From IMG/VR virus record IMGVR_UViG_2648501669_000003, positions 1-9,884 of that record: a stretch of 9,884 bases of DNA; one strand, given 5' to 3'. The notes beneath the pieces are model-generated. The model was not told the DNA's origin, made no database searches, and saw only the letters and a list, made by a program, of their open reading frames with translations. The stretch is from a virus (Duplodnaviria; Heunggongvirae; Uroviricota; Caudoviricetes). Each line of letters opens with the position of its first letter. Position 1 is the stretch's first letter. This document shows positions 2,564-9,884 of this stretch, piece by piece. Made by a program: the position numbers and the translations under genes.

Positions 2564-3613
2564 TTACCCGAGCACACCGGTTGCAAAGGCGTGATCAAGA
2601 AAACGAAAAATTAAATCAACCTGAGAACCATGCTTTTCTTCGAACGCCAGCGGATCCGCATGAAGTTCGTTGTGATGCTCCCGGCACAGCGGTAGCGTGA
2701 AAATATCGTGGGATTTTGTCCCCATTCCGCCCTGACCATGACCAATCAGGTGATGGGGATCGTCGGCTGGCTTACCACAACACGCACACGGCTGTGTCTT
2801 CACCCAGCGCGTGTATTTCTCATTTATCCAACGGCGACGTTTAGGTCGCTTCATGAAAGATTCCGGAGACTCCGGATCTACGGCAATGCTGACCACCGTC
2901 TTTTCCTGTGGTGCGTTCTGTTGCTGGTGGATGTGAGGCAACGGCGCAAGATTTTTTGTGCGCTGCTTCAGTATGCTGGTGGCGGTCTGCTCTCCCGGTA
3001 TGATGTCGCTTTCGCGGTACACCGAGCGGATTTTTTCCGCACGTAACCCCAGAGAACGACGTAATACTGCCTCCGGTAGCGCGTCCGCCAGCTGATTGCG
3101 GACCGCCCACCAGGATAATTCAGCCAGAGATAATTCACGCTCCTGCGTACCGCTTATTGCGTGACCGATGACGTCAATCATCCATGCTGACAGGTTTTGA
3201 TGAGCAAGTTGCTCGAGTGATTCGGATGTCTGGTCACGCAGCTGGTTGTCGCAGTGCCAGCACAACACCATCGCGCCGGTACCGTAACGATGTATGACGG
3301 TTTCACTGTGATGGTAGTCGCCATGAGGCCACTGGCAGGATTTGACATGACGCAACAGCCAGTCAGACAGTGCACCAGCGCCGCCAGCAGCACGAATCAC
3401 CCGTTCGTTGCTGAAAAATGGCAGTAATGATTTATCTTCCGCCAGCGGCTGGCGAACGGCAGGAACGACTCCGGACGGCAGACCGCGCATGCTTTTTGGC
3501 TCCGGTTCAACCAGCACTCTGCCGTTATGGAATACCTGCATGGATTCACGACCTGGCTTAACGATAACCACCCCAAGTTCCGGTACCGGAACAGGTCGAA
3601 GCAATACCCGCAC
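2564..3613 (-). CDS. DUF968 family protein with C-terminal HNH-like nuclease motif (YdfU-like)
   Basis: 349 aa with GTG start at 3613, GGAGG SD 4 nt upstream, 1 nt after the upstream stop. The C-terminus carries a Cys/His cluster (CACCGKPADDPHHLIGHG ... LCREHHNELH) consistent with an HNH fold. Same position relative to hok and Q as ydfU in K-12 Qin (from memory). Confidence 0.75.
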   Translation of the reverse strand: MRVLLRPVPVPELGVVIVKPGRESMQVFHNGRVLVEPEPKSMRGLPSGVVPAVRQPLAEDKSLLPFFSNERVIRAAGGAGALSDWLLRHVKSCQWPHGDYHHSETVIHRYGTGAMVLCWHCDNQLRDQTSESLEQLAHQNLSAWMIDVIGHAISGTQERELSLAELSWWAVRNQLADALPEAVLRRSLGLRAEKIRSVYRESDIIPGEQTATSILKQRTKNLAPLPHIHQQQNAPQEKTVVSIAVDPESPESFMKRPKRRRWINEKYTRWVKTQPCACCGKPADDPHHLIGHGQGGMGTKSHDIFTLPLCREHHNELHADPLAFEEKHGSQVDLIFRFLDHAFATGVLG

Positions 3614-3614
3614 G

Positions 3615-3887
3615 TTACCTCCAGATGCGTTGCTGGAATGTGCGGGACGGACGCGGTGGGCGTTCGGAATAAGGGAGTCTGACGTAGATTATCCAGTGAC
3701 GATAATCGAGGCTGAGGGCTTTCCTAAACTCATACCCACGTCTGCGGTAGTTCTGAATCAGCCATTCGGCCTGTTCTTCAGTGCAGGGATCGTGCTGATA
3801 CCAGTCATATTTGAATGCGTGTGAACGCCGCCCATGCCGGATGGCAAGGTCGGTATCAGAATTGTGAAATTTGGTTTTGTGCGCCAT
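3615..3887 (-). CDS. Hypothetical protein (90 aa), in the position of rem in Qin
   Basis: ATG at 3887 and TAA at 3615-3617; its 3' end carries the SD for the DUF968 gene, suggesting coupling. No recognisable motif. Confidence 0.55.
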   Translation of the reverse strand: MAHKTKFHNSDTDLAIRHGRRSHAFKYDWYQHDPCTEEQAEWLIQNYRRRGYEFRKALSLDYRHWIIYVRLPYSERPPRPSRTFQQRIWR

Positions 3888-3954
3888 CTGTTTTCTCTGC
3901 TGGCGCAGCAGGTGTCAGGTGTTCAGGCTGACGTGCGAATTGTAAACCAGAATG

Positions 3955-3985
3955 CCAGGAAAAAACAAAACCCGCCGAAGCGGGT
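3955..3985 (-). terminator. Rho-independent terminator of the hok transcript
   Basis: Minus-strand hairpin ACCCGC(3985-3980)/GCGGGT(3975-3970) with loop UUCG, followed by UUUUGUUUUUU (3969-3959). Confidence 0.6.
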
Positions 3986-3990
3986 TAAGT

Positions 3991-4005
3991 GCGGGTGCGT
4001 TGAGG
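3991..4005 (-). promoter_or_regulatory. fbi-like 3' element of hok mRNA, complementary to the transcript 5' end
   Basis: Plus-strand 3991-4005 gcgggtgcgttgagg is the reverse complement of plus-strand 4368-4381 cctcaagcacccgc apart from one extra base. Within a single minus-strand transcript these would pair 5' end to 3' end, as in the tac/fbi fold-back of hok mRNAs. A separate perfect 9-bp hairpin lies at 4026-4047. Confidence 0.45.
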
Positions 4006-4054
4006 ATGCCTGACTCATCAGAGGTGGCGAGGGATTTCTCCCTCGCCTGGTCTC

Positions 4055-4210
4055 TTACTCCTCAGGTTCGTAAGCTGTGAAGACAGCGACCTCCGTCTGG
4101 CCGGTTCGGATTCGTACCTCACAGAGGTCTTTCCTCGTTACCAGTGCCGTCACTATGACGGTTAAACAGATGACAATCAGGGCGATTAACATCGCCTTTT
4201 GCTGCTTCAT
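4055..4210 (-). CDS. hokD: Hok/Gef family type I toxin (51 aa), matching HokD/RelF
   Basis: ATG at 4210 with AGGAG SD 9-13 nt upstream and TAA at 4055-4057. Product MKQQKAMLIALIVICLTVIVTALVTRKDLCEVRIRTGQTEVAVFTAYEPEE has the single TM helix and conserved Cys/Glu of Hok proteins and matches my recollection of E. coli HokD. Confidence 0.8.
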   Translation of the reverse strand: MKQQKAMLIALIVICLTVIVTALVTRKDLCEVRIRTGQTEVAVFTAYEPEE

Positions 4211-4267
4211 AGCCTGCTTCTCCTTGCCTTTCGGCACGTAAGAGGCTAACCTACATGTGTTCAGCAT
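4055..4267 (-). CDS. mok-like overlapping reading frame (translational coupling frame for hok)
   Basis: ATG at 4267 with GAGG about 9 nt upstream; the frame runs through and is co-terminal with hok, as in hok/mok loci. Whether it is translated is not determinable from sequence. Confidence 0.35.
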   Translation of the reverse strand: MLNTCRLASYVPKGKEKQAMKQQKAMLIALIVICLTVIVTALVTRKDLCEVRIRTGQTEVAVFTAYEPEE

Positions 4268-4367
4268 GGATTGGCCTCAGATTAATGTTAAGCGTCTTGC
4301 AGGACGCGTAATGTTAACTGGGGCTTTTCTCTATCTGCCTTTTGGTGTTCATGCCTGAGGCAGATAG

Positions 4368-4420
4368 CCTCAAGCACCCGCAGCAATTCTACTTAACTCT
4401 CCTTTTCCCGCAAACCGTTT
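4368..4420 (-). promoter_or_regulatory. Putative hok promoter and 5' end (tac-like element) of hok mRNA
   Basis: Minus-strand TAGAAT -10 candidate (plus 4386-4391) about 6 nt upstream of a GCGGGUGCUUGAGG element (plus 4368-4381) that is complementary to the 3' element at 3991-4005. The -35 is weak. Confidence 0.35.
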
Positions 4421-4500
4421 TTATCCCCATCGGCAAATCGAATACACCACCAGCGCCACCGCCATCGCAATTCCTACCGTTGTGAATGCTTCAGGCCAGC

Positions 4501-5244
4501 TCACTTATCCCCCTCCTCATGACCTCCCCGCTCCCACGGGATGACCAGATCAACATCCACCTTCGCAGCAGCTATTTCCTCCTGTGGAAGGGTGCCATAA
4601 AATTTACGAAGACTTTTCGACATTCTCTCGAAAAAATTAGCCATGTATAAAACACCATCCCCCGCATCCTCTCTGATGCACGAACTTGTATACGCCTTTA
4701 GCAAATCCAGAAACGATATACGTAATGCTCCAGCACACGTATCAAATAAATCCTCATCCTGATCACCTTCAATGTAGGGAATTATCATATACGGCGGCAC
4801 TGATACCCACACCTCAACATCATCAGCACAACTAACACTGATACTCGCAGAGAACGATTCAGGGACATCATCCTCTGGTTCAGAGCCAGTTAATGGCACG
4901 CTCCATTCCTCACCAGTCCAGACGAATTCTTCCAGTAGCTCAACCCCATCGTTCGGTAACACTTGTGCTGGCGGCGCTGCGTAAAGTGGTGTTATTTCTG
5001 CCCGAAAGTCACCTATTTCATGCAGTCGCACCCACCGTTCGGCTTCTACTTTGTCAGAATACAGAGCAGTGAACGTATTATATTCATTGTCAATTTGCGT
5101 GAAGGTTGCCTTCCACGCCACTGGCTCTGCTTCCAGTGATGCCAGAGCAATCCGTGCCACTTCCATTTGTTCGCTACGAGTAAGCCCGTTTTCAAGCGGA
5201 TTTTTAATGAACAATTCAATACGTTCTTTGGTGATAGCGTTCAT
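4501..5244 (-). CDS. Hypothetical acidic protein (247 aa), paralog of the upstream gene; unknown function
   Basis: ATG at 5244 with AAGGA SD, starting 3 nt after the upstream stop. Shares an N-terminal module with the 140-aa protein (RIALASLEAEPVAW ... PLYAAPPA). The C-terminal two-thirds is strongly acidic (EPEDDVPE, EGDQDEDLFD, HEEGDK). Confidence 0.75.
   Translation of the reverse strand: MNAITKERIELFIKNPLENGLTRSEQMEVARIALASLEAEPVAWKATFTQIDNEYNTFTALYSDKVEAERWVRLHEIGDFRAEITPLYAAPPAQVLPNDGVELLEEFVWTGEEWSVPLTGSEPEDDVPESFSASISVSCADDVEVWVSVPPYMIIPYIEGDQDEDLFDTCAGALRISFLDLLKAYTSSCIREDAGDGVLYMANFFERMSKSLRKFYGTLPQEEIAAAKVDVDLVIPWERGGHEEGDK
5111..5160. repeat. Nucleotide-level paralogous segment (copy A) shared between the two adjacent genes
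   Basis: About 38 of 50 nt identical to 5517-5566 by hand alignment (core ctgcttccag[t/c]gatgccag). Encodes the conserved LASLEAEPVAW motif in both proteins. Confidence 0.5.
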
Positions 5245-8292: not shown

Positions 8293-8958
8293 TCAAACAA
8301 AACCTGCCGCTTTCCTGCGTTCATATTCCTGTTTCAGCAACTCAATTGGCGTTGGTCCCGCAGGACGTATGGGTGCTGCCAGTTGCCTACGGACGGGTGG
8401 AACACTCAGTCCGTTACCAACATGCTTTGCCCATTTCGCCAGTTGCCGTTCTGCAAGCCGTTTTAACTCCCCTTCGGTCATCTGGCGCTCAATCCCCTTT
8501 GAACGCATCTCGAGACAAATGTGATACAGCACAGGCTGAGACCACGGGTATTTATCGCTTCCGTCGTATCGCCAGGACTCGTTGCGCCAGCGTCGGTACT
8601 CCTCCATCACGTTATCCACCGTCAGACCAAATGGATTTGCCCCGCTCTCCGAAATCAGCGCCACAAACTCAGCCAAGTCCGGAGGCCATGTTTCACCTGC
8701 CCTGCAACGGTCCATGCACTGGCGGCAGACCAGCCGGATTTGCTGCTCAGTCATCGCGCCAATCTGTGCAATCCAGAGCTTCGAAGGTGCGGCCCCGTTC
8801 TTCTGGGTCCAGCGGTTCGAATAAACCTCCCCCATGAGTTCCCACAGCTTCCACGCCGTTTCCGTCGCTGATAAATCCATTTTCACGTTCCCACTGCTCA
8901 CGTGCTGCCCGAATTTCCTGAACTGCCCGTGATGCGGTGCCACCTGGTGCGGCTGCAT
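8293..8958 (-). CDS. Replication protein P-like (DnaB helicase loader); start uncertain
   Basis: The C-terminal 150 aa align by eye to lambda P (PPDLAEFVAL ... YPWSQ ... ELKRLAERQ). ATG at 8958 has a GGGGGTGA SD but makes a 212-nt out-of-frame overlap with the O-like ORF. Alternative in-frame ATGs lie at 8880 and 8754; the latter overlaps the O-like stop by 8 nt. Confidence 0.7.
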   Translation of the reverse strand: MQPHQVAPHHGQFRKFGQHVSSGNVKMDLSATETAWKLWELMGEVYSNRWTQKNGAAPSKLWIAQIGAMTEQQIRLVCRQCMDRCRAGETWPPDLAEFVALISESGANPFGLTVDNVMEEYRRWRNESWRYDGSDKYPWSQPVLYHICLEMRSKGIERQMTEGELKRLAERQLAKWAKHVGNGLSVPPVRRQLAAPIRPAGPTPIELLKQEYERRKAAGFV

Positions 8959-9787
8959 GGCTCACCCCCTTGCTGACTGGTTTAACCTGCGCCCTGACGT
9001 GATTTACGTGACGGGCGAATTTCTGCTCCCACTGAACCTGCGTAAATACTTTCCCCTCCGCTGCCCAGTAGTCCCGGAAGGCGGCAAGTTCAGCAGGTGT
9101 AAATTCCGGCTCCGGCAAAGCCATCCCCCACACCGCAGCCCGTCGTCGAAAATCCCGTGACGGATGCCAGCTATCGGTCATCGGAAATTTTCCGATGGGT
9201 TCGCTCAGGCCATCCAGGAATACGGGTGGCACTGCCTGTAACGACAAAACTTCCTGCTCACTGGTCGGAGCACTCTCGCGTGCATTATGTGTGGGGTTTA
9301 GATCTTTGGGTTCCTTTGGGTTCCGTGATCCGTTTTTGGGTGTCTTTGATGGAAAATTTGGGTGTCTTTGGTTATTTTCCATGCAGCTAAGAGTTCCGTT
9401 TTTGGGGCTGTTTTGTGCTGAAACATAACCATTTTCGGTACTGTTTTTATTAACAGTACCAATTTTACCCACCTTTAAAGACTCCCGTTTTTGGGTGTAT
9501 TCAGGCTCGGCAACGCTTTCTTCTACACCGATAAGTCGGTACACTACGATTTGCTTTGTTCGGCCTTTTCTCTCACCGGTATCAACAATTAACCCAATCT
9601 CCATCAGGTGTCGTAAGCTGTCCTGCACAGTCTTTTTGTTCAGCTCCGTTACTTCTGCCAGTGCAGATACAGACGGGTATGCACACAAATCGGCACCGCA
9701 CATATCAGCAAGCCAGGTCAATACTGACTTACTGGATGAACTGCCGGTTTTCACCTTTTTAGCCCATCGTAGTGCATCGATACTCAT
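8747..9787 (-). CDS. Replication initiator (O-like): N-terminal wHTH DNA-binding domain fused to a DnaT-like C-terminal domain
   Basis: The ORF-track start at 9862 is a TTG, so the ATG at 9787 (MSIDALRWAKK, GGGG upstream) was used. The N-terminus looks like a winged HTH. The C-terminal segment GKFPMTDSWHPSRDFRRRAAVWGMALPEPEFTPAELAAFRDYWAAEGKVFTQVQWEQKFAR matches the C-terminal region of E. coli DnaT as I recall it. The central linker is low-complexity and encoded by the iterons. Confidence 0.75.
   Translation of the reverse strand: MSIDALRWAKKVKTGSSSSKSVLTWLADMCGADLCAYPSVSALAEVTELNKKTVQDSLRHLMEIGLIVDTGERKGRTKQIVVYRLIGVEESVAEPEYTQKRESLKVGKIGTVNKNSTENGYVSAQNSPKNGTLSCMENNQRHPNFPSKTPKNGSRNPKEPKDLNPTHNARESAPTSEQEVLSLQAVPPVFLDGLSEPIGKFPMTDSWHPSRDFRRRAAVWGMALPEPEFTPAELAAFRDYWAAEGKVFTQVQWEQKFARHVNHVRAQVKPVSKGVSHAAAPGGTASRAVQEIRAAREQWERENGFISDGNGVEAVGTHGGGLFEPLDPEERGRTFEALDCTDWRDD
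9304..9499. repeat. Iteron array (putative phage replication origin) embedded in the initiator gene
   Basis: Direct repeats: ctttgggttc twice in tandem (9304-9313, 9314-9323); ccgtttttggg at 9330-9340, 9396-9406 and 9485-9495; tttgggtgtctttg at 9335-9348 and 9357-9370. An AT-rich block follows at about 9410-9480. This is analogous to ori-lambda inside gene O. Confidence 0.6.
9437..9460. repeat. 9-bp inverted repeat with 6-bp spacer inside the AT-rich part of the putative origin
   Basis: ggtactgtt-tttatt-aacagtacc; a perfect palindrome in the AT-rich segment. Confidence 0.4.
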
Positions 9788-9884
9788 ACGAACCCCTGGC
9801 AGACATTTGTTTATCTGCAAAGTAATATTGGTATTGCTGACGATACGCACGCTTGAAAGCAATGGCTTTTTCTATAAGCTCGTC
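9759..9884 (-). CDS. Partial CDS: C-terminal about 41 codons of an upstream gene, truncated by the window edge
   Basis: Minus-strand frame open from the window edge to TAA at 9759-9761 (DELIEKAIAFKRAYRQQYQYYFADKQMSARGSYEYRCTTMG). It has more G-initial codons than the alternative TTG-extended O frame and overlaps the O-like start by 29 nt. Identity unknown. Confidence 0.3.
   Translation of the reverse strand, partial: DELIEKAIAFKRAYRQQYQYYFADKQMSARGSYEYRCTTMG

Follow-up and report, generated by a model that had tools for sequence, protein, structure and literature searches.

What is already known about the hok loci closest to the one described here? The hokW-sokW system of Sp5 is a toxin with an RNA antitoxin that has its own promoter, HokW being toxic and sokW neutralising it (PMC8621323). 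In Sp5 lysogens the hokW mRNA is already there before induction, and upon induction the sokW RNA vanishes in a RecA-dependent manner (Takada et al. 2021, PMC8621323). HokW is seen approximately 1 h before the endolysin on induction, lysis is earlier and phage yield is doubled, and this aid to lysis and phage release on prophage induction is the only role shown for hokW-sokW (PMC8621323). Smaller hokW RNAs and a partial dependence on RNase III/Hfq have been reported, and HokW exhibits only ~44% protein identity with the Hok of plasmid R1 (PMC8621323). In the R1 model, a 5' tac element, a metastable hairpin and a ucb element over the mok Shine-Dalgarno (SD) sequence are combined with a 3' fbi element beside the terminator, and the antisense Sok RNA lies over the mok start (PMC9841398). 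A recent survey, in which HokD served as a toxic control, found hok to be enriched in prophages and cites earlier tests in which the chromosomal hokA, hokB and hokC gave no post-segregational killing (bioRxiv 10.1101/2025.08.07.668861).

The window, the whole 9,884-nucleotide stretch of phage DNA analysed here, very probably (a probability of roughly 0.85) carries in full a type I toxin-antitoxin module, hok/mok/sok, that falls in the hokD/hokW subgroup, is situated in the nin-like, early-right part of a lambdoid prophage and would operate by the R1 mechanism. The locus is ~94% identical at the nucleotide level to hokW/mokW/sokW of 933W (AF125520), over a stretch that starts in the small ORF upstream and extends to fbi, and to the loci of many Stx phages. 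The hokW locus of 933W/Sp5 has the same hok -10, tac, ucb, mok start, Sok promoter and fbi, identical to those of the window, and likewise an in-frame, 70-codon mok and a 27-aa ORF upstream. Clear differences can nevertheless be discerned: the C-terminus of Hok reads …FTAYEPEE in the window but …FVDYESEK in 933W, one nucleotide differs in the Sok 5' tail/mok SD spacer, and 933W is without the terminator hairpin after fbi, the homology to the window stopping just past fbi. The 933W locus adjoins attR, downstream of the pL operon after excision, whereas the window locus is found between P and Q.

The hokD (relF) gene of the E. coli K-12 Qin cryptic prophage provides a second close relative, with DNA that is 97.4% identical across positions 4224-3961, a stretch that includes the hok SD, fbi and the terminator. 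The Qin neighbourhood is similar to that of the window, with a DUF968/YdfU gene and a Q-like gene downstream, but the gene between hok and ydfU in the window is a different one and is not Rem. In K-12, relBE has taken the place of the entire leader, with its promoter, tac, ucb, mok start and Sok, making hokD the third gene of the relBE operon, and since only positions 4224-3961 are shared, the window carries the complete form. Each of the R1 elements named above, at the 5' end, at the 3' end and over the mok start, has a counterpart in the window. In R1, however, mok is in another frame than hok, unlike the in-frame mok of the window, and R1 hok/mok/sok is a plasmid-stabilising system whereas the window locus resides on a prophage. 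Other chromosomal loci, including hokC (gef)/mokC/sokC, belong to the same subfamily, with toxins 72-82% identical in protein sequence to that of the window, and they share the in-frame mok of 57 nt and the tac and fbi core. They differ from the window in having a shorter Sok hairpin and a different Sok -10 (CACTCT-like), are chromosomal rather than prophage-borne, and are often disrupted by insertion sequences.

The locus has a match in 4743 of 5426 complete E. coli genomes, and 2666 genomes cover at least 80% of the 581-nt query with both flanks; the RefSeq gene name at matching loci is hokD. In strain JB2, the one top match that was inspected, the order is replication genes, small ORFs, hokD, a small ORF, DUF968, RusA and an antiterminator, and the phage record vB_Apl-pPE4 has the same arrangement. 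A locus of this kind is nothing new: publications already cover the family and the way its RNA folds, its occurrence in lambdoid prophages, and what the near-identical hokW-sokW does.

Within the window the genes follow the order known from the early-right arm of lambdoid prophages, and every one of them is on the minus strand, as judged from the ORF list, Pfam and PHROGs: an O-like DnaT/HTH protein (9862-8747), replication protein P (8958-8293), a Ren-like protein and several small phage ORFs, the hok locus, a 90-aa ORF directly after it (phrog_1212, function listed as unknown), a DUF968/YdfU protein (3613-2564), RusA (2551-2192), a Q-like antiterminator (DUF1133/Phage_antitermQ, 2195-1629) and a DNA methylase (1095-46). 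The hok locus thus has P upstream and the Q-like gene downstream, all three on one strand, and this gene order shows that its placement in the nin operon by the original prediction was right. The 90-aa ORF was considered as a candidate for Rem, which follows hok in the K-12 Qin prophage, and was ruled out because its sequence is unrelated. NCBIfam gave no matches for the genes neighbouring hok, and a tRNA scan found no tRNA genes in the window. At most 78% of the window is covered by any one complete E. coli genome or phage record; it is a mosaic lambdoid prophage.

The two reading frames are as first proposed, a 51-aa hok overlapped by a co-terminal mok-like frame. The hok toxin gene occupies positions 4210-4055 on the minus strand with an SD sequence, GGAG, at 4223-4220, and the 70-codon mok frame, in frame and co-terminal with hok, occupies 4267-4055 on the same strand, with a GAGG SD at 4278-4275, 7 nt before the mok ATG. 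The toxin matches Pfam PF01848 (HOK_GEF) with 82.9 bits against a cut-off of 22, and all 51 of its 51 residues are shared with E. coli K-12 HokD (RelF); it falls below the cut-off of the NCBIfam Hok models (48.5 versus 73). The mok frame matches phrog_251, 'MokW-like host killing', in PHROGs with E = 7.7e-33, and the position of the mok ATG is kept in 34 of 36 relatives, either in frame or in the +1 frame. By analogy with homologues, translation of hok in the window locus may be coupled to that of mok, and the toxicity of HokD and of HokW suggests that the window Hok would be toxic and would be neutralised by Sok.

What marks the hok mRNA of this family is its long-range fold-back, and in the window it is readily recognised. 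The tac element, GGGUGCUUGAGG, is found on the minus strand at 4379-4368, where the hok mRNA probably begins, a position indicated by the start of the Rfam match, by the fold and by conservation. Its partner fbi, CCUCAA-C-GCACCC (CCUCAACGCACCC), identified from the fold and from covariation, lies at 4005-3993 on the same strand and is complementary to tac with one bulged C. The predicted near-perfect complement of the 5' element is indeed present in the 3' UTR, its fuller form being CCTCAACGCACCCGC at 4005-3991, minus strand. The complement of tac has one exact match (a 13-mer) in the window, and chance would give 0.23 matches in 9.9 kb even with up to two mismatches; the tac/fbi pairing is well beyond chance. 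When the predicted 427-nt transcript was folded, the 5'/3' pairing that had been anticipated appeared as the outermost helix of the minimum-energy structure, which has an energy of -179.5 kcal/mol and z = -8.3, with none of 100 shuffled sequences being as good. The Rfam covariance search suggested as a check was likewise positive: RF01794 matches positions 4379-4205 on the minus strand with 118.6 bits against a gathering threshold of 59, and does so over its full length (model positions 1-157). Although RF01794 is named 'sok', the model has the sense of the hok mRNA, its consensus opening with GGGUGCUUGA (tac) and closing at the hok AUG. A reading of the minus-strand match as a hit on the wrong strand was thus set aside, since the alignment shows that the model describes the hok mRNA leader, which is why it falls on the hok strand.

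To place the fold in its family, relatives were collected by a scan with the Hok protein, taking one genome per species, which gave 53 loci from Escherichia, Shigella, Kluyvera, Pseudocitrobacter, Citrobacter, Photorhabdus, Pantoea and others, and 36 full-length loci were aligned for covariation. The tac/fbi pairing is kept with compensatory changes in 35 relatives, spanning Escherichia, Kluyvera, Photorhabdus, Pantoea and Citrobacter. Its core, GGGUGC with GCACCC, is paired in 35-36 of the 36 loci, the variable position is a UA pair in 22 loci, CG in 11 and UG in 2, and the second half compensates as GAGG/CCUC, GAGA/UCUC (Kluyvera and Photorhabdus) or GAAG/CUUC (Citrobacter). Every intact relative possesses a 12-bp 5'/3' duplex of -18 to -27 kcal/mol, whereas the duplex of a frameshifted Shigella pseudogene reaches only -10 kcal/mol. 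When the whole minimum-energy structure of the window RNA was mapped onto the 36 loci, 85.9% of cells were paired, compared with 37-47% in slid controls, and in 34 pairs both partners change. That the sequence and RNA-structure elements are present, conserved and covarying is directly observed, and compensatory changes that keep the pairings across genera indicate ongoing selection. Together with the Rfam and Pfam scores and the 94% identity to hokW/mokW/sokW of 933W, the covariation upholds the original prediction of a structurally complete hok/mok locus with a tac/fbi fold-back.

Other pairing partners of tac are also recognisable. A 5' hairpin, CUUGAGGC-UAUCU-GCCUCAGG at 4374-4354 on the minus strand, is paired in 95.5% of cells over the 36 loci (26-51% in slid controls) and has two pairs with compensatory changes; following the R1 model (PMC9841398), this metastable hairpin could hold tac in the nascent transcript. 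The ucb (anti-SD) element, AAGCCCC at 4326-4320 on the minus strand, has two partners, the mok SD region when the full-length RNA is folded and tac in one truncated fold. In the full-length fold its helix (helix 4) joins GCC.CAG to CUGAGG.C and includes AU/GC compensations. In the alternative tac/ucb stem, GGG.GCUU is joined to AAGCCCC; this stem is 99.2% paired but never varies, and so offers no evidence from covariation. Within tac a single position (U/C) covaries, and it is the base that is bulged in the tac/ucb stem, which fits a base constrained only by fbi. Shortening the RNA in silico gave an equivocal picture of a switch between the two states, with one of two truncation points leading to the open form: the mok SD is paired in the minimum-energy fold of the full-length RNA, but when the RNA is cut at 4006 the minimum-energy fold contains tac/ucb and a free mok SD. 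With a cut at 4020 the closed form stays, and the ensemble probability that the SD region is unpaired hardly shifts across the truncations, from 0.25 to 0.31.

The 3' UTR contains a perfect 9-bp hairpin, GGCGAGGGA/TCCCTCGCC, at 4047-4026 on the minus strand. It had been predicted to follow the 3' complement, and of that claim the hairpin itself stands but the order does not, for it sits between the hok stop codon and the complement. It is 96.9% paired, with three pairs showing compensatory changes (helix 14), and by reference to R1 it is probably the stem-loop that protects the 3' end of the processed mRNA (PMC9841398). After fbi comes the strong intrinsic terminator that had been expected, AACCCGC-TTCG-GCGGGTT followed by a T-run, at 3986-3960 on the minus strand (stem-loop 3986-3969). 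The same terminator is found in K-12 hokD and in several E. coli and Shigella loci and is absent in 933W.

Where the original prediction failed is in finding no convincing promoter for a Sok antisense RNA on the plus strand. The Sok promoter, recognised by its conservation, consists of a -35 TTGCCT (4224-4229), a 17-nt spacer and a -10 TAACCT (4247-4252) on the plus strand, and it is identical to the sokW promoter of 933W and homologous in position to the Sok promoter of R1. Across the 36 loci the pattern is TTGCCT or TTGACC, approximately 17 nt, and then TAACCT, TAATCT or variants. In the promoter-less sokW construct of Takada et al. 2021, primers YO-421/422 replace exactly TAACCTA, and this construct lost antitoxin activity (PMC8621323). 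Projection of the annotated sokW of 933W by alignment places a predicted Sok RNA of ~70 nt at 4259-4328 on the plus strand; its predicted fold (-31.5 kcal/mol, z = -5.05) has an unpaired 5' tail that is complementary to the mok start, followed by a single long hairpin and a tail rich in U. At the level of sequence, then, the locus appears to encode a ~70-nt Sok with its own promoter, covering the mok start.

Does hok also have its own promoter, or is it a passenger of the early-right (pR) operon that would be made only on induction, as a lysis accessory? The layout would suit a passenger: the genes on either side, from P to the Q-like gene, share the orientation of hok, and terminator prediction gives nothing between hok and the genes that precede it. 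The predicted -10, TAGAAT at 4391-4386 on the minus strand, is present, and with a 16-nt spacer and TTGCGG (4413-4408) it forms a candidate hok/mok promoter at 4413-4386, in which TTGCGG would be a weak -35. A simple consensus promoter scan found no promoter on either strand of the locus, which, like the weakness of the -35, could be counted on the same side. The scan was rejected as proof of absence: the hok and Sok promoters narrowly miss its cut-offs, but each keeps its register throughout the family, and the Sok promoter escapes the scan because its -10 matches only three of six consensus positions. Against a passenger stands a TAnnnT hexamer, which precedes the conserved GGG by 6 nt in 35 of 36 related loci, chromosomal and plasmid-borne ones among them, although the upstream flanks of these loci differ and are unrelated DNA among clades. 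Its fixed register despite unrelated upstream DNA argues for an own hok promoter and against pure co-transcription. The predicted 5' element upstream of mok is also in place, as GCGGGTGCTTGAGG at 4381-4368 on the minus strand, 114 nt upstream of the mok ATG. From GGG (4379) onward it forms the conserved duplex, but the first two bases (GC) of this 14-mer, which would form GC pairs, are paired in only 10-14 of 35 relatives; that part of the prediction was not sustained, and tac was trimmed to start at GGG. Since the conserved duplex begins at GGG and the two preceding bases pair in a minority of relatives, the hok transcript probably begins at GGG, 4379, and a tac/fbi covariation that starts exactly at GGG is as expected if GGG is the 5' end of the RNA. 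The presence of hokW mRNA in Sp5 lysogens before induction (PMC8621323) also speaks against an induction-only transcript, and we regard a hok without its own promoter as highly improbable.

Could the window locus instead be an inactive relic, retaining inherited elements but neither killing nor regulation, as has been reported for several K-12 chromosomal hok loci? Decay does occur in this family, for K-12 hokD has lost its whole leader, leaving homology to the window at 4224-3961 only, and degraded copies exist, a frameshifted one among them. In the window, however, both frames, the ribosome-binding sites, the promoters, tac, fbi, ucb, the hairpins and the terminator are all intact, the compensatory changes across genera point to pairings still under selection, and the 94%-identical hokW-sokW works in its native prophage (PMC8621323). 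A relic is an unlikely explanation, and a complete module of the R1 type accounts for the locus better.

How would a complete hok/mok/sok module operate here? The account that follows leans on homologues for its start sites, 3' processing, Sok expression, toxicity and biological role. A weak constitutive promoter (-10 TAGAAT) would produce an mRNA of ~418 nt, from ~4379 to ~3962, and in the nascent transcript the local hairpin would hold the 5' tac. In the finished RNA, tac would pair with fbi just before the terminator and ucb would cover the mok ribosome-binding site, giving a stable, untranslated message. Slow 3' trimming to the 9-bp hairpin would strip fbi, whereupon tac would move to ucb and the mok ribosome-binding site would be freed. 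The trimmed RNA would then be either translated, mok and then hok by coupling, or bound by Sok: the short-lived, ~70-nt Sok made from TTGCCT-17-TAACCT would cover the mok start and bring about decay of the duplex. Once Sok synthesis stops, Hok, identical to K-12 HokD, would be made and would damage the inner membrane. Post-segregational killing and defence against other phages are possible roles, taken from R1.

What might the place of the module in the early-right arm entail? The position and orientation of the locus may couple the release of Hok to prophage induction, a suggestion that we put forward tentatively and consider rather doubtful. With hok co-oriented inside the early-right operon, the Sok promoter fires head-on into transcription that has to traverse the locus on its way to the Q-like gene. 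The 933W arrangement is comparable: the N-antiterminated pL operon ends at attL position 1 and after excision runs into L0142-L0139-hokW on the same strand, so that the Sok promoter faces antiterminated early transcription in both settings. Transcriptional interference could thus remove Sok on induction. If so, derepression of the early promoters could shut off Sok and could also yield a read-through hok RNA that ignores the hok terminator, which would explain the RecA-dependent loss of sokW RNA. The hok terminator would then double as a nin-type terminator, and expression of Q would need antitermination.

The value of the present analysis is mainly a clean annotation, the base-level map of the regulatory RNA elements being its only addition to what has been published. 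The window possesses a complete, ancestral-looking hokD locus, of which the K-12 copy is a version truncated by relBE. Its anatomy makes the shut-off of Sok at induction testable, and the co-orientation of hok with the early operons suggests that transcriptional interference may be the means.

What is conserved across the overlapping mok and hok reading frames (minus strand, 4267-4055 and 4210-4055)? The position of the mok start is maintained among relatives (hok loci L010, L011, L023, L025 and L028-L031, compared with window positions 4210-4267), and in most relatives 57 nt separate that start from the hok ATG, which places the two in frame. In Kluyvera and some others the spacing is 58 nt and mok is in the +1 frame, and in most of these loci the mok reading continues deep into hok. 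The mok of plasmid R1 is likewise in the +1 frame relative to hok. The conserved feature across mok/hok is translation through the region, rather than a Mok protein.

In the Qin prophage of E. coli K-12, the homology of hokD to the window starts at 4224, the first base of the -35 hexamer (4224-4229) of the promoter for the antisense RNA Sok. Replacement by relBE has removed tac, ucb, the mok start, the Sok RNA and the remainder of its promoter; fbi (4005-3993), the 3' complement of tac, and the terminator are retained. The window shares its terminator (3986-3960) with K-12 hokD and with several loci from E. coli and Shigella. Phage 933W differs: when its positions 3275-3330 in the compared locus are set against window 3960-3990, homology ends a few bases past fbi and, unlike the window, 933W has no terminator hairpin at the position after fbi. 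On the plus strand, a 59-codon ORF (3834-4013) runs antisense to the 3' UTR of hok, to fbi and to the terminator. RefSeq genomes annotate an ORF at the equivalent position as a hypothetical protein, for example WP_001112732.1 in E. coli strain JB2; the window's ORF is probably a spurious call, because it overlaps these hok RNA elements.

Upstream of hok lies an unannotated, hydrophobic 27-codon ORF (minus strand, 4421-4504; V/M-SWPEAFTTVGIAMAVALVVYSICRWG), whose GTG start shares bases with the stop of a 247-aa ORF (GTGA) and whose 3' end immediately precedes the hok promoter. It is kept 5' of hok, with amino acid changes, in 933W, E. coli JB2, phage vB_Apl-pPE4 and other loci, and it had no match in PHROG or NCBIfam. 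Elsewhere in the window, the ORF list gives the O-like (8747-9862) and P-like (8293-8958) ORFs a 212-nt same-strand overlap (8747-8958); the true P-like start is probably downstream of the listed first ATG.

Some E. coli-type hok loci occur under unexpected host names: one in PP818812.1, deposited as 'Actinobacillus phage vB_Apl-pPE4', while in the Acinetobacter idrijaensis and Xanthomonas pisi assemblies two more (L017 and L022) sit on contigs of 275-431 bp. The loci are 94-98% identical in DNA or protein, and their presence there looks like contamination or a misassigned host.

Within hok itself, codon 47 (Tyr47, UAC) and the following G (minus strand, 4069-4072) are part of a UACGAA that is invariant in the alignment (36/36 loci). 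UAC followed by G is the reported motif for A-to-I editing by TadA, which recodes tyrosine to cysteine in hokB; the corresponding codon of hokC, hokD and hokE is reported to be recoded likewise (bioRxiv 10.1101/2025.08.07.668861). Because the invariant UACGAA matches this motif, RNA editing may be a further requirement for toxicity of the window's Hok.
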